Positions 4,772 to 43,479 of a stretch of 64,000 nt of DNA are shown here, piece after piece. Source of the stretch: a virus (lineage: Duplodnaviria > Caudoviricetes); the IMG/VR virus record IMGVR_UViG_3300017655_000001, positions 1-64,000 of that record; one strand, written 5' to 3'. Position 1 is the first letter of the stretch; the number at the start of each line of letters is the position of its first letter. The position numbers and the translations under genes were made by a program. The notes beneath the pieces were generated by a model. The model was not told the DNA's origin and searched no databases. It worked only from the letters and a program-made list of their open reading frames with translations.

Positions 4772-5476
4772 CTAATATGATTTACCTTCTTGGTAACGAA
4801 CTCTGCGATTATGTCTTCCGTTACCAATATTCTTACCCTTATATGTGTCGGTCTGAGAGTGACAGTTAGGACAGATTAGACACACATTATCTGGTGATGC
4901 ATTTTCACTATTACCATCAATGTGCTCAACCTCTAAAACTATGTCTTTTCCGTTCCAGTCAGTCAATCCACAAACTGAACACTTGTAACCATGGACTATA
5001 GTAAGGAAGTTCTTAAGAACCCTGTTAACAAAAGATTTACCATGCAAGTACCAATCTAAGAAGTTATCTTCTACTTTCTTTTCTGCGGCACATTTCTGCG
5101 AGCAATACTTACTTGTTGAATTTCTCAGAGGAAAGAATATTTTACCACAATTCAGGCACTCGCACTCTTGCTTTATTTTTCTAGACTTGGTTGTCTTATT
5201 ATTAACAGATACTGCACAACTTCTTGAGCAAAATTCGTTAATACGCTTTTCGTAAGAGATGACTGTCTGACAATGTCTGCACTTACGGGGATTCTCATAG
5301 TAAAGTTTTCTTGCAAAACTTGCGTTTAATTTATAAAGCCTAAGACCCCTATTCATACAAGCATTGTAGCTTGGTAGACCGGCATCTTTAAGGTCAGCTT
5401 TTGTAATAGGTAGCTGCTTTACTTTGTAAATTTCCCAAAGACGTTCCACAATTTCATCTAAAGTTATTTCGTACAT
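4772..5476 (-). CDS. HNH endonuclease (Zn-finger repeats + HNH)
   Basis: FCSRSC and YCSQKC repeats; CSVCG...LEVEHIDGNSENASPDNVCLICPNCHSQTDTY. Confidence 0.92.
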   Translation of the reverse strand: MYEITLDEIVERLWEIYKVKQLPITKADLKDAGLPSYNACMNRGLRLYKLNASFARKLYYENPRKCRHCQTVISYEKRINEFCSRSCAVSVNNKTTKSRKIKQECECLNCGKIFFPLRNSTSKYCSQKCAAEKKVEDNFLDWYLHGKSFVNRVLKNFLTIVHGYKCSVCGLTDWNGKDIVLEVEHIDGNSENASPDNVCLICPNCHSQTDTYKGKNIGNGRHNRRVRYQEGKSY

Positions 5477-5555: not shown

Positions 5556-5630
5556 TGGAGGCAAAGCTGAGAATCAAACTCAGGTCACGGCGTTACAAAG
5601 GCCGGGTAATGATCACTATACGACAATGCC
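5556..5630 (-). tRNA. Atypical tRNA, anticodon TGT (Thr) in a non-Thr-like body
   Basis: Cloverleaf GGCATTG...CTTTGCC-T-CCA, anticodon loop TTTGTAA, T-stem CTGAG/CTCAG. Has two acceptor mismatches, a C31-C39 mismatch, no D-loop GG and T-loop TTTGATT. Confidence 0.65.
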
Positions 5631-5638
5631 GAAACTAG

Positions 5639-6028
5639 TTAATCTTCTTTCTTTGGAAGCATATGGAGCGAGAAACGAACAGGTTTCTCTGTAGCACCAA
5701 CAGAATTATCTTCTTCTGGTGTATCTTCTGTATTCTCTTCCAAAGATTTCTTAATTGTATTTCTACGCTGTTCTTCGTTGATAGCTGCTGATGTGGTTGA
5801 AACTACACGTTCCACAACCCACTTTGCAGAGCTTAATTGGTCCTTTGGGATATCTTCACCATTAATTGATTTCTCAATAATGGCAAGAGCAGGATCTTCA
5901 AGCTTTGAAAGCTTTGTTAGGAGTTTACGAAGTTCGCTCTTCTTGACCCTTGGTCCGCGAATTCCTTTTGAATTGCGATTTTCAGGATTACTTGTAAAAC
6001 CCTGAGTATTATTCTTAGGGGCTGCCAT
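5639..6028 (-). CDS. Putative terminase small subunit
   Basis: N-terminal GFTSNPENRNSKGIRGP resembles the TerS NP.GRP-type motif. Helical middle, acidic tail, 129 aa, same strand as and upstream of terL. Confidence 0.5.
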   Translation of the reverse strand: MAAPKNNTQGFTSNPENRNSKGIRGPRVKKSELRKLLTKLSKLEDPALAIIEKSINGEDIPKDQLSSAKWVVERVVSTTSAAINEEQRRNTIKKSLEENTEDTPEEDNSVGATEKPVRFSLHMLPKKED

Positions 6029-6066
6029 CGCAGATACCTCTTGTAATTATTCTAGACAGAAATCTT

Positions 6067-6255
6067 TCTGAAACCTACTAATCAAAAATAGGCTTTAGAA
6101 AGAAGCAGCTATCAACAGGAGAATGAATTGATAGCTGCACATAGCTCTACAACATGGAGGAGAAAGACATATTATAGAGAAGAAGCTTCACGTATGAAAG
6201 GAGAGTAAAACACGTGAAGCATACACATCGTTACTTGCTTTATTTCGCTGATGTG
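6067..6255. ncRNA. Array of five hairpins, three with AGGAGA (+) / UCUCCU (-) loops
   Basis: Stems GCAGCTATCAA/TTGATAGCTGC, CTCTACAACATG/CATATTATAGAG and GCTTCACGT/ACGTGAAGC with loops CAGGAGAATGAA, GAGGAGAAAGA and ATGAAAGGAGAGTAAAAC. Confidence 0.7.
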
Positions 6256-6261
6256 AATTAG

Positions 6262-6756
6262 TCAGTCAAAGAAGCCATCTCTTTCGAGATTATCAAACTC
6301 CCAATGACAGTTTGGACACAGGGGTATTACATTATCTTCACTATTAACATCTCGCAAAAGCTCGTGATCTTGGAAGTCAGATACTGCTCTGATGTGGGCA
6401 AGCTCTACGTGCTTATCGTATCCACACTTCCTACAACACTCTAAAGCTAAATGTTTTAGCCAAGATCTAGCAAAACTTCTAACGTGAGCATTAATCCAAG
6501 ATGGATGTTTACCCGCAACGGAGAGTTTTGTTCTGTACTCCCCTAAAGTTTTATCTCTATACTGATTTTCTTTATGTTCTAACCAATGTTCTTCGCAAAG
6601 TGTACTCCTATAATTTCGTACTATTTTATCACAACGAGAACAGACCTTTTTACACTTTCTCTTTGGATGCAATTTATTAGTATAATTTGCGGAACAACTT
6701 CTTGAACAAAACTTAGGATTTGTGGTTTCTGTACCACAGTTTAAACAATTATTAAT
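6262..6756 (-). CDS. HNH endonuclease; probable true start is ATT at 6756
   Basis: CRKCGY...VELAHI...DNVIPLCPNCHWEFD. The frame extends upstream through INNCLNCGTETTNPKFCSRSC, with a GGAG RBS 8 nt before the ATT. Confidence 0.85.
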   Translation of the reverse strand: MNNCLNCGTETTNPKFCSRSCSANYTNKLHPKRKCKKVCSRCDKIVRNYRSTLCEEHWLEHKENQYRDKTLGEYRTKLSVAGKHPSWINAHVRSFARSWLKHLALECCRKCGYDKHVELAHIRAVSDFQDHELLRDVNSEDNVIPLCPNCHWEFDNLERDGFFD

Positions 6757-6860: not shown

Positions 6861-6943
6861 TGGCACAGCAGGTGCGGTTTGAACGCACATTTTCAGTTCC
6901 AATTACCCGTAGCAATTTAGAAGACTGCTGGGACTACTGCTGC
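6861..6943 (-). ncRNA. D-armless tRNA-like RNA, anticodon-like TCT, long variable region
   Basis: Acceptor GCAGCAG/CTGCTGT-G-CCA, 6-nt linker in place of the D-arm, AGCAGT(CTTCTAA)ATTGCT, T-arm GTGCG(TTCAAAC)CGCAC. Confidence 0.7.
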
Positions 6944-6952
6944 GTAAATTCG

Positions 6953-7024
6953 CTGGCATGGTTGAATTCGAATCAACGACCGGACGGTTAACAGCCGTCT
7001 GCTCTACCACTGAGCTACACGCCA
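6953..7024 (-). tRNA. tRNA-Asn(GTT), CCA not encoded
   Basis: TGGCGTG TAGCTCAGTGGTAGAGC AGACGG CTGTTAA CCGTC CGGTC GTTGA TTCGAAT TCAAC CATGCCA G. Confidence 0.93.
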
Positions 7025-7669: not shown

Positions 7670-7743
7670 TTGGCCTGCCCAGACTCGAACTGGGACCGAG
7701 ACAATTATGAGTTGTTCGTGCAATACCCATACACCACAGGCCA
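7670..7743 (-). tRNA. tRNA with CAT anticodon (Met or lysidine-modified Ile2), CCA not encoded
   Basis: TGGCCTG/CAGGCCA acceptor, CTCATAA loop, CCCAG-TTCGAGT-CTGGG T-arm. C4/C5 in the acceptor is compatible with Ile2. Confidence 0.88.
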
Positions 7744-7839
7744 TCAAAGAATTCCCGCATGTGCGGGCTATGCTGTAGTCACGTTTCAGTCGTCAGACGC
7801 ACACACAGCTTGTCTTTTAATTGCCTTTCGGTCAACTCT

Positions 7840-8100
7840 TTAACAGGTAATTGTATAAGGCGGTTTGAAGTCTGGATCCCAATTCACTTCCTTACTAATC
7901 AAATCAGAAACCTTTTTCCAATCTGTATTTGGAGTGGTTGGTGCAATCTGTTTAAGTAGTGTGCTACGATCAGGAGTCTTCTTATCAAACACAAGCTTTA
8001 GATGATCTTTAATCACCAACCATTGCTTGTCTGAAATACTCTCTGTCTCGGTTAGCTCTACAAAGCCTTGGAGCCAGAAAACAAAATCTTTTTCGGTCAT
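7840..8100 (-). CDS. Hypothetical protein
   Basis: 86-aa ORF with GGAG RBS, directly after a promoter. Confidence 0.75.
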   Translation of the reverse strand: MTEKDFVFWLQGFVELTETESISDKQWLVIKDHLKLVFDKKTPDRSTLLKQIAPTTPNTDWKKVSDLISKEVNWDPDFKPPYTITC

Positions 8101-8125
8101 TTATTATTTCTCCCATTCAAGATAC

Positions 8126-8154
8126 AGAATATCAGACTTTTAAGAAAAAGTCAA
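8126..8154 (-). promoter_or_regulatory. Sigma70-like promoter driving the tRNA cluster
   Basis: TTGACT-17-TATTCT. Confidence 0.7.
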
Positions 8155-8179
8155 TAGGTAAACGAAAATAATTCAAAAA

Positions 8180-8344
8180 TTATTCGTAATTTGGTAAAAT
8201 AGTATGAAATTGGGTCTGTCCTTTTTCTGTCAAGGATTCAAAAGCGTACTCAAATCGAAACTTAGCTGTTTCTTCTTGTTGTTCTAATTGAAATTCTTTA
8301 ACACAAAGACAGACCACTTCATCGCAATATTCGCAGTAGTCCAT
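8180..8344 (-). CDS. Small hypothetical protein (54 aa, MDYCEYCDEVVCLC...)
   Basis: Below the ORF-track cutoff; read directly. Follows the promoter at 8379-8408. Confidence 0.55.
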   Translation of the reverse strand: MDYCEYCDEVVCLCVKEFQLEQQEETAKFRFEYAFESLTEKGQTQFHTILPNYE

Positions 8345-10581: not shown

Positions 10582-11719
10582 ATGAAATTTTACGTTGTAT
10601 TTGAGCACTGGTATAATTATTGTGATCAATGGGATGTTGCAGAGTCTTACTGGTTAAGTGAAGAAAAAGCAATTGAACGTGTTATTGAACTTGAGTCTAA
10701 AACTAAGATTAGTGAAAACTATTGGGTAGATTACGAAAGTATTCAAACTGAGGATTAAAGCATGCAACAGAAAAGTAAAGAATTCTTTGAAAAACTGGCT
10801 TCCCTTCTTGAAGAATATGGTGTAGAAATAGAAATCACAGAATCGTGTTACGGTTATCAAGGATTTCAAGTGGATGGGCTGGAATTCGGTATTCCGTATG
10901 TTGTAGAGGATGGAGAATTCAGTTACAATAGCGTAGATTATGTAGAGCTTGCTGGACGATTCCATAAAACAGAAGATATTCGTGAGGAGATTGGGAAGTG
11001 AAAAGTATTCAAATTTGGGTTGTGCATGAAACGCAAGGCGGTAAGCTGGTTCGTGCTTTCACTACAGAGCAAGATGCTTGGAGTTTCCTGCAGTGGTCGC
11101 ATGCTGAAAAAGAATTAGATGGAAGATATTTTACAGTGAAACCAATTTGGCTAGAAGACTGGAGTAAGAAATGAAGACTATTCCTAACGTTCCATACGGC
11201 TGGATGGATTTTGTCTCTCGTGTAAAAAGCTTGACAACGAGCCCACTCTCAGCAGATAATTATTCAGTGATGATGCGAGAATATTACATTCTTGGTAAAA
11301 CACCACAGGAGTATGTGAATAGCTTGAAATAAATTTTTGAAATAAGGAGAGTATTATGTGCGATTTTTACGAAGAAATTTATGAGATGTGTCAAGAAGCG
11401 ATTGATCCGCATTTAAAACCTAATCAACATGGGATGTACAGCATTACTAAAGAAAGTTTAATCCCTAGTGTTGTAGAAAGTCTTGAATATCTTATTGAAT
11501 TCTGGCAAGCTAACAAGAATAAGGAAGGTATTGACCTATGTGGAGCACGGAATGTCTAAAATCAAAATCATTGAACGTCCATACGGAAAGAAACGTTATT
11601 GTGTGTATTTTGGGAAGCAGCTGATGGACAGGTTTAGTAGTAAAGAAAATGCGAATCATTATGCTAGTATGTATTTGGTTCCTCCGTATAGCCTAGAGAC
11701 GAATAACTGGTATAGTTAA
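10582..11719 (+). other. Run of about six small hypothetical CDS
   Basis: Includes 10762-11001 and 11356-11559 plus several sub-60-aa ORFs read directly (MKFYVVFEHW..., MKSIQIWVVHET..., MKTIPNVPYGW...), each with a GGAG/GAGG RBS. Confidence 0.7.
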
Positions 11720-40803: not shown

Positions 40804-43479
40804 TTGGTGTCTATCGAAACAAATCAAAGGAAACACATCATGTCTGATTTACTGCGTATGGATTTTATCAACAGTCTTCCACAACCTCTGTGGGTGAGGC
40901 AATGGGGCAGAGAATCGTTTGACTGGCCTGTTTACGACATTTGTGTAGAAACAGGTCTTATCCGAATCGACGTATGCGGTAAACTGGGCAAGCTTCACAT
41001 CTGCGATGTTGCGCAATTCAAAGACGATTACGGCACTGTTTATGATTCAGATGTGTTCTACAGCGATTACGAAGAAAATCCTTGACAGACACAGCCGAAT
41101 GGTGTTTAATTAACACATAGGCAGACAAACACAAGCTCTCGGAATCATCGGAGATGAACATCATGGAATACACGATTTCTATTGACAACCTCATCATCAC
41201 AGCAGACGTACACGCTTACGAAACATCTAGTGGTTATAAAGAGATTGAATATACAATCGAACGTGTATTGGAGCTTGACGAGGATGACATTCCTTATGCA
41301 CTTGACAGCAAAGAAAGTGATGATATTCTGTGTGGGCTTGAGGATGTTGTGAAAACTAAATTGATTGAAGCTATTGAAAAGGGGGAATGAATTGTGAAAG
41401 AGCTTTATGCAGAGATTGAGCGATTCCAAAAACTGAAAGAACGTACAGGTACAAACAAGAGCAGTAGCTATTCTGTGCTATTCCGATTTGATCCGTGGTC
41501 TGATAATGTAACAATCGAACTTGGTGGTTACGATGTGGGTAGCTGGCCACGACATGTTTATGTTGACTCGACTAAAGAGACTCTTCTCCAAGATTTGAAA
41601 GCTAAAGTAGATGAAGCTTATCTTGTTGTGGAAGAAGATGAAAAGGAGAGTGAATTGTGAGCATGAACCTTGCACTCAAGAAAGGTAAGATTGTAGATCA
41701 CGTCATCTTGTACCAAACTCCTACATGGGTCACTAATGAAGCATTAGAATCCAGTAACACGTTTGAATATTACAAGAATTGGGTTCTTGAAGGGCGTCAG
41801 GGTAGGTTTTATGACGCAACACTTGAACACTTTGCTGTTGTTCAAGAACTGCTGGACGATGGTTGGAAGTTTATAATGGTTTAAAACCTCCGTTCCGCGC
41901 CCAAAAACGTACATAGAAACGTTTTCTTGAAGAATCTGTGTACGTAGTAGGGAAGAGAGGAAAACGTTTTAAATAGGCTGTTTTACTAAGGAGAATTTTA
42001 TGGATTTGCATGCAGAAATTATGAATATTCCGGCAAACATTGTACTGACTGGACCCGAAGGTGTTGGTAACGTACACTCAAACCCCTACATCGCCTATAA
42101 AGAGGGTCATAGGGATGCACGACATGATGCTGCTGAATTGGCTTTGAAAGCACAAGCTAGGATTGAGGAGCTTGAGGACATTTTAGCAGCTTTTGTAAAC
42201 TGGCAGACAGACGCAGAAGGTAAGCTGTCAATGCTAGACGATGATGAGCTTTGGCTGAAAGCTGAAGATGTTCTGAATAAGAAATGATAACCGTCATCAG
42301 CTACATCGCATTGCGTTATTTCTTTGACTCTGATTGGAGTGGTATGCTATTGTTGTTGCCAATCTTCTTGGACTTGACTATTTTGAATAAATTTTGAGGG
42401 GTGTTTTATGGCTAGAATTAAATTGCAGTACTTTAAGTCTTCAGGTAAGTGGGGTTACGAAGGCGAACTTGAGTGGGCAGACGATAAATCAATGTACGGT
42501 CTTATTGATCACGTTAAAGACCTAAATCGAAATCGTAAACTGCCAGGTTTGGCTTCTGGTTCTTGGGACGGCCCTATTTACTTAAATACTGACGAACACC
42601 CTATGGGTTATCCTCTCCTGATTTTGGAGTAAATCAATGACTGACAACAATTGGTTTGACATTAAAGTAAAAGCACAATACGATCATATTCAAGAGTTGG
42701 AAGCAACTGTTCGGGAATATGAAAAGTCTGAAGAATGCTGGAATGCTTTGCTTTCCTATGTCCTCGGTCAAGGGTACACTGAAGAGCCTCTTCAATTCCT
42801 GCGCTGCTGGAATGAAGGTGACTTTGATGCATTGCGTGAAGAATGGCCTGATGCACCTAAAGAGATTTATTATGCAGATCCTTTGAATGAGGAACAGAAA
42901 TGAACCAAACAGAACACAAAAGCATTACAGCTTTGATGAAAGCTATTAAGAAAGATATGGAAAGCGGAATTACACAAATTGCTGTGATTGTTGAAGAAGG
43001 CGAAGATAAAGTAGAGAAGAAGTATATTTATAGTCGTCCGTTTGTTAATGAAATTAAGGGAGAAGAGTGATGGCTCATATTTATGAGATTTATTATGAGA
43101 ATAAACAAGGTGATATTGTACACTGTCAAGATGTATATGATGAGCAAGAAGCCCTTCATGAAATTACATCTCTTACAAACGAGTTCCCAGAGAATGAGTA
43201 CTGGTATGAGACTATTTTTGAGGATGAGCAGTGACGTTTACAATTAACATAGAAAATGGAACAAGCCTATATACAGCAGAAGACCTTATTCGCTATAATG
43301 ATGCAGGCTTGCTTTATTGTGGGGATGTTTGTCTAAGTAGTGTGATTGATAAGATTGTTGAGTATTATGAAGAGAAGCTTTCTGAGATGAAAGAGAGTGA
43401 GGGTGAGACTTATTCGGATTATCAAGAAGGCTATCAAGCGGCTGTAAGTGAAATTCGTGGATTTGTTGATAATATGTGA
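40804..43479 (+). other. Run of small hypothetical CDS (40840, 41154, 41394, 41657, 42000, 42408, 42637, 43231 and shorter)
   Basis: Contiguous ORFs with RBSs; promoter TTGACA-17-TTTAAT at 41082-41110. Confidence 0.7.

Follow-up and report, generated by a model that had tools for sequence, protein, structure and literature searches.

The closest described relatives in kind of the locus reported here are the cuckoo sRNAs of alphaproteobacteria, namely alpha-r14/NfeR1 of Sinorhizobium and CcsR1-4 (RSs0680a-d) of Rhodobacter, which are represented in Rfam by ar14 (RF02344) and CcsR1 (RF02791). RNAs of this family consist of two to four adjacent hairpins, each with an anti-Shine-Dalgarno (anti-SD)-like pyrimidine motif in its loop; the stems are highly variable with many compensatory changes, and the loop motif is the sole conserved sequence (PMC4615179). 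For NfeR1, it is experimentally established that three identical anti-SD motifs act as redundant seeds that occlude ribosome-binding sites (RBSs) (PMC10746234), and in the CcsR system the sRNAs are reported to be co-transcribed with a gene for a small protein (PMC8034643). Several C-rich hairpin loops pairing with the G-rich SD sequences of many mRNAs are also described for S. aureus RNAIII, the RsaE/RoxS-type sRNAs and M. tuberculosis 6C (PMC4615179; PMC6486639).

Here we describe a hairpin array from a Felix O1-type phage of soil that constitutes an undescribed RNA family of this known design. The array lies inside the tRNA gene cluster, just upstream of the late genes, in an ORF-free gap at positions 6029-6261 of the window (the whole 64,000-nucleotide stretch of DNA that was analysed). 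As the initial annotation had reported, five consecutive hairpins occupy this gap, and they form a module at 6063-6255. The description of the whole array as displaying anti-SD loops holds for the three central hairpins, which carry the motif, and the module's first and last hairpins are distinct conserved components. The features of the locus are as follows.

6262-6672, minus strand: gene for an HNH endonuclease that separates the tRNA-like element from the array as a lineage-specific insertion
6224-6255, minus strand: H0, first element of the module, with a 6-bp stem and an A-rich 20-nt loop (AGCGAAAUAAAGCAAGUAAC)
6185-6220, minus strand: Ha, an 11-bp stem with the loop UUUACUCUCCUUUC, anti-SD core UCUCCU
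6145-6179, minus strand: Hb, a 12-bp stem including two G-U pairs on minus, with the loop UCUUUCUCCUC
6105-6138, minus strand: Hc, a 12-bp stem with the loop UCAUUCUCCU, next to the U-rich tract
6097-6104, minus strand: U-rich tract UUCUUUCU, directly 3' of Hc, where the 5' arm of H4 also begins
6063-6103, minus strand: H4, closing helix of the UUUCUAAAG.../...CUUUAGAAA type, with 15-nt arms that are 87% complementary
6036-6042, minus strand: SD of P0001 (AAGAGGU), to which the loops are not complementary
5639-6028, minus strand: P0001, a 129-aa gene whose product has a basic disordered N-terminus, two long helices and an acidic tail

The stems of Ha, Hb and Hc are unrelated to one another and each loop core reads UCUCCU on the minus strand; the corresponding AGGAGA motifs of the plus strand are found at 6117, 6158 and 6199, a spacing of exactly 41 nt. 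Direct-repeat identity between the units is limited to 10 nt, and type III antitoxin (ToxI-like) repeats were rejected since they need near-identical tandem direct repeats and the units share only the loop core. The 87-kb genome contains 175 TCTCC motifs, six of which lie in the loop of a hairpin of at least 9 bp. Three of these six sit in the array, compared to a background of only 1.1% for random 5-nt sites in the same genome, and a chance origin of the array is thus excluded.

More than 15 related uncultured phages each carry the array as a single copy at the 3' end of their tRNA cluster, and between lineages its stems are wholly replaced with the loops unchanged. A plain alignment of all lineages with MAFFT and RNAalifold gave no structure because the unrelated stems were mis-registered, and a covariance model was used instead. 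Although built from only four arrays of one lineage, this model recovered the array in each of the other lineages, with every hit on the coding strand (in the window with 52 bits, E ~1e-10). In the resulting structural alignment of 13 sequences from P0001-linked lineages, which is fitted to the covariance model and as such biased towards structure, 97.0% of cells pair; shuffles give 66.7 +/- 1.7% (none of 500 reached the observed value) and slid partners 29-46%. Both sides change in 32 of its 36 pairs: 11 of 14 in helix 1 (Ha, 98.7% paired), all nine in helix 2 (Hb, 98.3% paired) and 12 of 13 in helix 3 (Hc, 94.6% paired). Within lineages, six stem changes are compensatory, 14 are one-sided with pairing kept and five break the pairing. 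These substitution patterns indicate that the array is a real structured RNA and that its structure is under selection.

All lineages keep UCUCC unchanged as the core of the three loops, among them a distant one (L037) whose P0001 is only 41% identical; L032 has four to five CU-loop hairpins with the core in all but one, which reads UCCUCC. The cores are spaced 36-44 nt apart across lineages, loop length ranges from 8 to 19 nt with the position of the core inside the loop varying freely, and the stems of the three hairpins measure 9-15 bp in the 13 aligned P0001-linked lineages. The comparison of loops with stems in relatives, which the initial annotation had put forward as a check, therefore came out in favour of its reading, with the loops conserved and the stems not. 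The accompanying elements are conserved as well. Most other lineages have an H0-like hairpin with a AAAGUAAAA-type A-rich loop ahead of their three CU hairpins; none was detected in L012 (or L014). After the last CU hairpin, all lineages show a U-rich tract of the (C)UUU(U)CUAA type, and H4 encloses a variable insert of 10-200 nt in other lineages.

A pattern scan of IMG/VR for three spaced UCUCC motifs returned at least 119 stretches, nearly all of them noise; among the matches listed, L037 and L032 were the only true arrays, and L088, L040, L079 and L139 were discarded as tandem direct repeats. Neither the array of the window nor those of 13 relatives had an Rfam match. A covariance model of 124 positions (R2) is usable for annotating the family. 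In a search of read runs, the phage was found in soil DNA runs and its relatives in wastewater, fermentation and plant runs. Four runs of RNA type contained contigs of relatives, from which strand, ends and level are not readable, and in a true metatranscriptome (X19) the reads cover the neighbouring genes, with the array outside the coverage.

Several observations bear on the strand. The minus strand folds at -69.1 kcal/mol (z -6.3) and the plus strand at -59.4 kcal/mol (z -4.3), and in 14 of 14 loci the coding strand gives the more stable fold. All hits of the covariance models fall on that strand, and the tRNAs and genes flanking the array share its minus orientation. Furthermore, all 14 one-sided stem changes that keep pairing do so through G-U on the minus (coding) strand and would be C-A mismatches on plus. 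Because every such change passes through G-U on the strand of the tRNAs and genes, we conclude from the sequence comparison that minus is the strand of the RNA, in agreement with the earlier suggestion that the RNA is likely made from minus. That the loops are exposed was likewise borne out by folding: the loop core has an unpaired probability of 0.92-1.0 in nine lineages, compared to 0.4-0.48 for the whole leader. Plus-strand mini-ORFs across the loops were dropped because the evidence points to the minus strand, and a promoter-like TTCATA-16-TATAAT at 6198-6171 (minus), within the array, was taken as chance because relatives do not conserve it. As to termination, all lineages have the U-rich tract after the last hairpin, with loops of 8-14 nt and A/U-rich stems. 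A scan with a terminator consensus made no call at Hc and its U-rich tract because the loop is longer than 8 nt; judged by its sequence, the tract may form the tail of a leaky intrinsic terminator.

The likeness to the cuckoo RNAs lies in adjacent hairpins of similar size, variable covarying stems and anti-SD loops (three in the array, on 9-15-bp stems). The loop motif of the cuckoo RNAs is CCUCCUCCC, whereas that of the array is UCUCCU(CC); CCUCCUCCC was never seen in the array and CCUCC occurs in some loops only. Searched against the full 87-kb genome, the ar14 (RF02344) and CcsR1 (RF02791) models gave no hit with E <= 10. Cuckoo RNAs are encoded on alphaproteobacterial chromosomes or plasmids, for example 3' of a DUF1127 gene, while the array belongs to a phage of virulent type, has no DUF1127 gene, ends a tRNA cluster at its 3' side and is framed by a hairpin with an A-rich loop before it and the H4 helix after it. 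Moreover, RBS repression by the cuckoo RNAs is experimental, whereas that by the array is predicted, from computed duplexes and RBS statistics. RNAIII, RsaE, RoxS and 6C differ from the array in their UCCC or CCCC motifs, their Gram-positive hosts and their chromosomal genes with own promoters, and no sequence or Rfam relationship to it was found. In CsrB, RsmY and RsmZ, tandem hairpins with conserved GGA loops on the transcribed strand bind CsrA/RsmA. These RNAs share with the array a conserved loop motif, variable stems and the tandem arrangement; a sponge of the CsrB/RsmZ type was rejected because the array has its GGA on the non-transcribed strand and its structure is selected on the UCUCCU strand. 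The c4 antisense RNA of phages P1 and P7 is cut from the transcript of the downstream genes, with exposed segments that cover an RBS. It is named in a review of phage sRNAs (PMC12197685). c4 targets one downstream site in its own operon, whereas the array loops match a generic class of RBSs. A c4-type antisense function was rejected, as the SD of the next gene (AAGAGGU or AAAGGU) has no complement in the loops and the region has no Rfam match.

We also analyzed the RBSs that the loops would meet. According to a crude ORF/SD caller, which is not a curated annotation and underlies both the SD counts and the class split, AGGAGA is the most frequent SD hexamer (in 33 of the 137 ORFs with an SD, compared to 5 with AGGAGG), as had been noted from the sequence before, and AGGAG is followed by A in 33 of 47 cases. 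At a cut-off of -10 kcal/mol or better, the loops pair with 46-58 of the 137 RBS windows and the 16S tail with 19. The predicted RBS pairing lies 0 to 2 standard deviations above that of core-preserving flank shuffles, and the loop flanks contribute little beyond the SD core, consistent with the caution in the initial annotation that its RBS matches did not exceed what a shared SD consensus would give. Three of the matches named there, near 11345, 41642 and 49707, are again among the best predicted duplexes. The best predicted target is the RBS of a 73-aa gene at 41663 (-19.5 kcal/mol, 15 of 17 positions complementary to the Ha loop). This gene has no orthologue in four related records, and co-variation between loop and target could therefore not be shown.

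Use of AGGAGA differs between gene classes. In genome G000, where the identity of the late block was confirmed with PHROGs, AGGAGA occurs in 1 of 42 late-block RBSs versus 31 of 91 elsewhere (p = 1.9e-5), and in the distant genome G002 in 1 of 30 versus 25 of 77 (p = 9e-4). In these two divergent genomes AGGAGA is the RBS hexamer of about one-third of the non-structural genes. Phage vB_PsaM_M1, which is without the three-hairpin array, shows a weaker split (AGGAGA in 3 of 26 late-block RBSs versus 22 of 98 elsewhere; GGAG in 9 of 26 versus 73 of 98), and the RBS split is thus not specific evidence for the array. With its weaker split and the one CU-loop hairpin that it keeps at the equivalent place, vB_PsaM_M1 is neither a clean negative nor a positive control. 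A RegB homologue, which could otherwise have explained a GGAG-based class split, was not detected.

Given that the three loops expose the exact complement of the early- and middle-gene RBS, we propose that the array RNA is a phage-made brake on translation whose anti-SD loops occlude RBSs; on sequence evidence and by analogy with the cuckoo RNAs, we give this reading about an even chance (a probability of roughly 0.5). The gap would encode a structured RNA of ~160-200 nt on the minus strand, co-transcribed with the phage tRNA genes, and we infer that it accumulates as a discrete RNA. H0 with its A-rich loop is followed in order by the three stable hairpins, the U-rich tract and the closing helix H4, with the three hairpins serving as rigid stalks that hold UCUCCU, often extended to UUUCUCCUCC, single-stranded in their loops. 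UCUCCU perfectly complements AGGAGA(A), the RBS of the phage early and middle genes, and the loops would pair with the SD regions of phage or host messages in competition with the 3' tail of 16S rRNA. The effect, presumptive in direction and timing, would be a lower rate of translation initiation and secondarily a lower mRNA stability, as modelled on the cuckoo/NfeR1 sRNAs and S. aureus RNAIII. Three redundant heads would allow one RNA to cover many messages, and late genes would escape because their AAGGA-type sites lack GGAGA. The multi-headed RBS-blocking RNA suggested by the initial annotation thus stands as far as its design, which matches that of NfeR1 and the other cuckoo sRNAs (PMC10746234, PMC4615179), and the gene-class-specific use of AGGAGA are concerned; the blocking itself is proposed by analogy. 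An objection to the brake is that a generic anti-SD RNA would hit messages of the phage itself too, and any benefit of this to the phage is conjectural.

A more far-reaching version of the translation brake compares it with phage-encoded regulators of initiation. The T4 proteins RegB and RegA act on early messages by recognising their SD or initiation region (in the case of RegB, GGAG), and late genes avoid the motif. GGAGA-type sites are likewise depleted in the late genes of the array phage, an analogy of function only, since RegB and RegA are proteins whereas the array is an RNA in a phage without a RegB homologue. The array could be the RNA counterpart of RegA/RegB: a mimic of the ribosomal tail, made with the tRNA and late transcripts, that would selectively occlude GGAGA-type RBSs, both those of the phage early and middle genes and those of host messages resembling them, with the late AAGGA-type genes escaping, so that one three-headed RNA would act as a class-wide temporal switch of translation. 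We put this forward tentatively, as a possible but doubtful extension.

The genomic neighbours bear on the alternatives. Without exception, the array is immediately preceded by a tRNA or tRNA-like element and followed by a co-oriented gene. A tRNA abuts it in L002, L010, L019 and L037, and the contig of a relative lacking the HNH gene joins 6255 directly to 6861. The array heads the packaging and structural (late) gene block, with the terminase a few genes downstream; TerL is 84% identical to that of Pseudomonas phage vB_PsaM_M1, from which we judge Pseudomonas to be the likely host group. P0001 is the usual but not obligatory downstream neighbour, and in P0001-linked relatives the SD downstream of the array reads AAGAGGU or AAAGGU. 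In L018 an inserted 232-aa gene separates the array from the P0001 homologue, as a gene probably does in L144, and in L032 a structural gene lies downstream of the array with the P0001 homologue 3.4 kb away in the record. phiPMW and SYP have P0001 homologues too, with a plain terminator and a promoter at the position of the array. P0001 itself had no match in Pfam, among PDB sequences or by Foldseek, and no RNA-binding family or fold was detected. Its language-model neighbours are DUF5681, which is a lead only.

The array might instead be a platform or sponge whose CU-rich loops, A-rich H0 loop and U tail bind a protein that is sequestered or recruited as CsrA is by CsrB/RsmZ; candidates are ribosomal protein S1, cold-shock proteins, Rho (YC dinucleotides), Hfq (A-rich loop, U tail) and P0001 of the phage. 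Tandem variable stems with conserved loops are also typical of protein-sponge RNAs, but the free variation of loop length and core position suits base pairing better than a fixed protein pocket, and we identified no known bacterial protein with UCUCCU specificity. The H0 loops hold two to four A-R-N triplets (read by eye), and the U-rich tract stands after the last hairpin in every lineage. P0001, with its basic disordered N-terminus and helical hairpin, would be a candidate partner as the usual neighbour, and CcaF1, a small RNA-binding protein, is reported to be co-transcribed with cuckoo sRNAs (PMC8034643). However, P0001 is not obligatorily adjacent (L018, L144, L032), stands by a plain terminator and promoter in phiPMW and SYP, and lacks a detectable RNA-binding family or fold. 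We consider such a platform unlikely, although it survives best among the alternatives.

Next in order, and also improbable in our judgement, is a junction acting in cis between the tRNA operon and the late genes, with no targets in trans: it would serve processing of the tRNA precursor, 3'-end protection or termination, or act as a 5' stabiliser or enhancer (for example by S1 recruitment) of the first late message. The constant place between a tRNA or tRNA-like element and a same-strand gene fits this reading, as do the canonical terminator and promoter in the same position of phiPMW and SYP, the U-rich tract that always follows the last hairpin, and H4, which connects the array to the region just upstream of the next SD. 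Yet termination, processing and stabilisation need no invariant UCUCC in three loops despite full replacement of the stems, the downstream SD (AAGAGGU/AAAGGU) is not complementary to the loops, and the downstream gene varies between P0001, the 232-aa gene of L018 and the structural gene of L032.

It is very unlikely that the loops are decoys for an enzyme attacking the ribosomal anti-SD tail, that is, substrates or inhibitors of a host abortive-infection RNase with CUCCU/UCCUU-type sites. In several lineages the middle loop carries CCUCCUU, the sequence of the 3' tail of 16S rRNA. One report describes a MazF toxin by which the anti-SD of 16S rRNA is removed (PMC12274833). Against this, the invariant core is UCUCC(U) and not the ACCUCCUUA of the rRNA, the loops of the window share only CUCCU or CCUCC with the tail, and nothing in the data points specifically to a decoy. 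We know of no anti-SD-removing toxin in the likely host group.

Still less probable is a plus-strand antisense RNA whose AGGAGA (GGA) loops titrate RsmA/CsrA-type proteins or ribosomes, which the initial annotation had offered as the reading for the opposite strand. Pseudomonas, the likely host group by TerL identity, uses RsmA/E with multi-GGA-loop sponge RNAs, and the plus fold also beats shuffles (z -4.3); the C-A mismatches on plus, the weaker plus fold in all 14 loci, the coding-strand-only covariance matches, the minus orientation of all neighbouring genes and tRNAs and the failure to find a conserved plus-strand promoter or terminator at the array all disfavour it. Least probable of all is an element acting as DNA, with hairpins extruded in single-stranded DNA as a replication origin, packaging signal or hairpin promoter: the terminase lies a few genes downstream and P0001 stands where a small terminase might be expected, but the G-U asymmetry and the 8-19-nt loops suit DNA cruciforms poorly, recognition by a double-strand-binding protein would be incompatible with total stem replacement, and the place inside a co-oriented tRNA transcription unit favours RNA.

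Regulatory RNAs of virulent phages are barely charted. The 2025 phage-sRNA review (PMC12197685) names no tRNA-linked RNA, the word tRNA being absent from it, and a term search of it found no RNA with anti-SD loops. The array adds a cleanly covarying RNA family with a simple candidate mechanism, three exposed complements of the phage's favourite RBS. If the translation brake is true, phages would regulate whole gene classes at ribosome recruitment by RNA rather than protein, the multi-loop anti-SD design would have arisen independently of the alphaproteobacterial cuckoo RNAs, and the avoidance of GGAGA by the late genes of this phage group would be explained.

The genome analyzed is that of an uncultured virus in IMG/VR (87,438 bp, 39.7% G+C, with terminal repeats and rated complete), of which the window comprises the first 64 kb. 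Between two minus-strand genes lies a gap at 6029-6261, whose minus strand was folded into five hairpins. The locus is laid out as follows:

7670-7743, minus strand: tRNA gene (ARAGORN)
6952-7024, minus strand: tRNA gene (ARAGORN)
6262-6672, minus strand: HNH endonuclease gene
6224-6255, minus strand: hairpin H0, with an A-rich loop
6185-6220, minus strand: hairpin Ha, loop UUUACUCUCCUUUC
6145-6179, minus strand: hairpin Hb, loop UCUUUCUCCUC
6105-6138, minus strand: hairpin Hc, loop UCAUUCUCCU
6063-6103, minus strand: hairpin H4
5639-6028, minus strand: P0001, a 129-aa ORF, function unassigned
5559-5630, minus strand: tRNA directly after the P0001 stop, called by Rfam only (40 bits, E 4e-6) and missed by ARAGORN

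The stems of Ha, Hb and Hc were mutually unrelated, each 11-12 bp long, and AGGAGA recurred on the plus strand at 6117, 6158 and 6199, with a spacing of exactly 41 nt. The fold energy was -69.1 kcal/mol (z -6.3) for the minus strand versus -59.4 kcal/mol (z -4.3) for the plus strand. Across the whole genome, about 1.1% of random sites fell within the loop of a hairpin of at least 9 bp, and six TCTCC motifs lay inside such loops, three of which were those of the array. The array is alone in the whole genome in presenting strong hairpins with such loops, and the initial annotation was therefore correct in its observation of a hairpin array here. A sigma-70-like site (TTCATA-16-TATAAT, 6171-6198, minus strand) that overlaps Ha and Hb was not conserved in relatives.

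P0001 had 47 relatives at cluster level (60-95% identity), many on 85-92 kb contigs, and we compared the DNA around 13 of them together with IMG/VR loci. The module lay on the coding strand in every one of these loci, with one array copy per genome and a tRNA, tRNA-like element or inserted ORF on its 5' side. An A-rich large-loop hairpin preceded the CU hairpins in most lineages, with none found in locus L012; then followed three hairpins with stems of 9-15 bp and loops of 8-19 nt, the U-rich tract (C)UUU(U)CUAA, the closing helix H4 and, about 25-35 nt beyond it, a Shine-Dalgarno (SD) sequence and gene. The initial annotation had suggested comparing loops with stems in related phages: the loop core UCUCC was invariant and present in each of the three loops, with cores 36-44 nt apart, while no stem sequence was common to the lineages. 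In some lineages (L006, L008, L015, L013/L014 and L012) H4 enclosed a lineage-specific insert of 60-200 nt. Inserts of several lineages shared the motif CAAC(C/T)CC(G/A)TCAATTTCT...TTTGTTGG.GT.GGGTGAGA, possibly an additional structured domain or else a promoter. An IMG/VR pattern scan added two more distant arrays, one in L037, a complete 84-kb genome with a 41% identical P0001 homologue, and one in L032, where the array directly precedes a structural gene and the P0001 homologue follows after another 3.4 kb.

Plain alignment of the lineages yielded no structure because their stems are unrelated, and a covariance model was therefore used. Built on four arrays of a single lineage, this model matched the arrays of all other lineages (E 1e-10 to 1e-19) and did so exclusively on the coding strand, and a second model built on the 13 matches also found L014, L037, L032 and four further IMG/VR loci. 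In the 13-sequence structural alignment, 97.0% of 437 pair cells held standard pairs, compared to 66.7 +/- 1.7% in shuffled alignments (0 of 500 shuffles as high) and 29-46% when partners were slid by 1-3 columns; furthermore, 32 of 36 pairs had changed on both sides. Fitting the alignment to the model introduces a bias in favour of structure; this is a minor worry, since the effect is large and the single-lineage model finds other lineages. Changes within lineages comprised 6 compensatory double changes, 14 one-sided pair-keeping changes and 5 breaks, and all 14 one-sided changes kept the pair through G-U on the coding strand, which would be C-A mismatches if the other strand were transcribed. 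The coding-strand fold was also the more stable in 14 of 14 loci. Thus, the pairing statistics, the G-U asymmetry and the fold stability reveal that selection on the structure acts on RNA from the window's minus strand, which also carries the tRNAs and genes, and this bears out the strand initially considered likely. The UCUCC cores were predicted to be unpaired in nine lineages (probability 0.92-1.0), and it is close to certain that this structured minus-strand RNA is real and conserved and that it exposes UCUCCU in three loops.

Genes have been inserted on both sides of the module. A 232-aa gene separates the array and H4 from the P0001 homologue in L018, and the approximately 900 nt between array and P0001 homologue in L144 are probably an inserted gene too; on the opposite side, the window carries its HNH gene, which is absent from several relatives. 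Mobile genes therefore flank the module and never interrupt it, and the tRNA region is a hotspot of homing-type insertions in which the hairpin module is always spared. Two HNH endonuclease genes lie in the tRNA cluster (6262-6672 and 4772-5476, both minus strand). An element of about 80 nt at 6861-6938, which has 82-85% identical counterparts in the Pseudomonas phages PA11, IME180, TC6 and others, received no tRNA call by ARAGORN or Rfam; it adjoins the array in a relative's contig that lacks the HNH gene, where 6255 is joined directly to 6861.

The large terminase shared 84% identity with its counterpart in Pseudomonas phage vB_PsaM_M1 (M1; 89 kb, Ounavirinae, Felix O1-like) and 63-65% with those of phiPMW and SYP, phages of P. 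putida and P. plecoglossicida. The window's DNA occurs in soil metagenomes, and small shares of its sequence words in wastewater, fermentation and plant runs probably stem from relatives, which were present in two wastewater runs and one rhizosphere run. The host is likely Pseudomonas-like. The three-hairpin array is absent from M1. A single 9-bp hairpin (6222-6260 of locus L020, about 40861-40899 of the record) stands immediately upstream of the M1 late block; its loop is UGUUCUCCUC, and single-stranded AUCCUCCUAC comes after the hairpin. In this cultured phage, the hairpin may represent a reduced relative of the array. Distant P0001 homologues occupy the same place in phiPMW (gp123, 7762-8187 of locus L140) and SYP, as first gene past the tRNA cluster and three genes ahead of the large terminase; the position homologous to that of the array, between tRNA cluster and homologue, is taken in both phages by an ordinary terminator and then a promoter.

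By the calls of a simple in-house gene and RBS caller, on which all RBS counts rest, AGGAGA served 33 of 137 SD-bearing ORFs and AGGAGG 5, with A following AGGAG in 33 of 47 cases. AGGAGA is thus the phage's commonest ribosome-binding hexamer, as initially noted, and the array loops are its exact complement. Pairing at or below -10 kcal/mol was predicted for the three loops with 46-58 of the 137 initiation regions and for the 16S tail with 19. Flank-shuffled loops paired nearly as well, falling 0 to 2 standard deviations short of the real ones, so pairing specificity lies almost wholly in the core and, in keeping with the earlier caution, the RBS matches hardly exceed a shared SD consensus. 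Between the Ha loop and the RBS of a 73-aa gene (41630-41665, plus strand), 15 of 17 positions are complementary, for a predicted energy of -19.5 kcal/mol; an orthologue of this gene was absent from four related records.

The array heads an extended gene block on the minus strand that continues across the genome junction; its products include terminase, head protease, major head protein, tail sheath, tape measure and baseplate. Of this block's genes, 1 of 42 had an RBS with AGGAGA, versus 31 of 91 genes elsewhere (p = 1.9e-5); for GGAGA it was 5 of 42 versus 42 of 91. The distant array-bearing relative G002, whose late block was confirmed by PHROGs, gave 1 of 30 versus 25 of 77 for AGGAGA (p = 9e-4). 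In both genomes the tRNA/packaging/structural block uses AAGGA, TAGGA or AAGAGG sites and non-structural genes favour (A)AGGAGA(A). A RegB-like endonuclease was not detectable. M1 shows a weaker split without the full array (AGGAGA, 3 of 26 versus 22 of 98; GGAG, 9 of 26 versus 73 of 98), and thus the split may predate the array or have another cause. We infer that the array RNA would act through pairing of its loops with SD regions, the best-supported mechanism, to which we give a probability of about one half.

A platform for protein binding is a distinctly less probable role. The N-terminus of the neighbouring P0001 is basic and disordered and contains a conserved GN..G..NP.NRN.KG motif; the protein also has two long helices and an acidic tail. 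Family and fold searches gave no match for it, and P0001 may be small-terminase-like or bind nucleic acids. A purely cis-acting element at the junction of tRNA operon and late genes is slightly less probable again. Simple sequestration in cis is unlikely, as the loops have no complementarity to AAGAGGU, the SD of the next gene downstream. That the array is a decoy for an enzyme targeting the anti-SD tail is very improbable. Beside the selection for minus-strand RNA structure, a plus-strand GGA decoy has a still smaller chance, and an element acting as DNA the smallest.

The array matched no Rfam family, at a cutoff of E <= 10 for the window and at the gathering score for 13 relatives. Pairing with SD regions has parallels among described RNAs. 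S. aureus RNAIII and RsaE are analogues with C-rich loops, and T4 RegB/RegA is one in function only. A further analogue is the c4 RNA of P1/P7, a phage RNA that is processed from its own operon and covers an RBS. The closest described kind is the cuckoo family of Alphaproteobacteria, with 2-4 adjacent hairpins, an anti-SD-like CCUCCUCCC in each loop and stems with mostly compensatory changes (PMC4615179); the three motifs of its member NfeR1 act redundantly as seeds in occluding ribosome-binding sites (PMC10746234), and the CcsR members share their transcript with the gene of a small RNA-binding protein (PMC8034643). On paper the array would work in a similar way, but it is not a cuckoo family member: its loop motif is a different one, neither of the Rfam models ar14 and CcsR1 found anything in the genome at E <= 10, and the genomic setting is wholly unlike. 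A 2025 review of phage sRNAs (PMC12197685) leaves tRNAs unmentioned and, as far as the terms searched, contains no anti-SD-loop RNA. The array constitutes a new RNA family.
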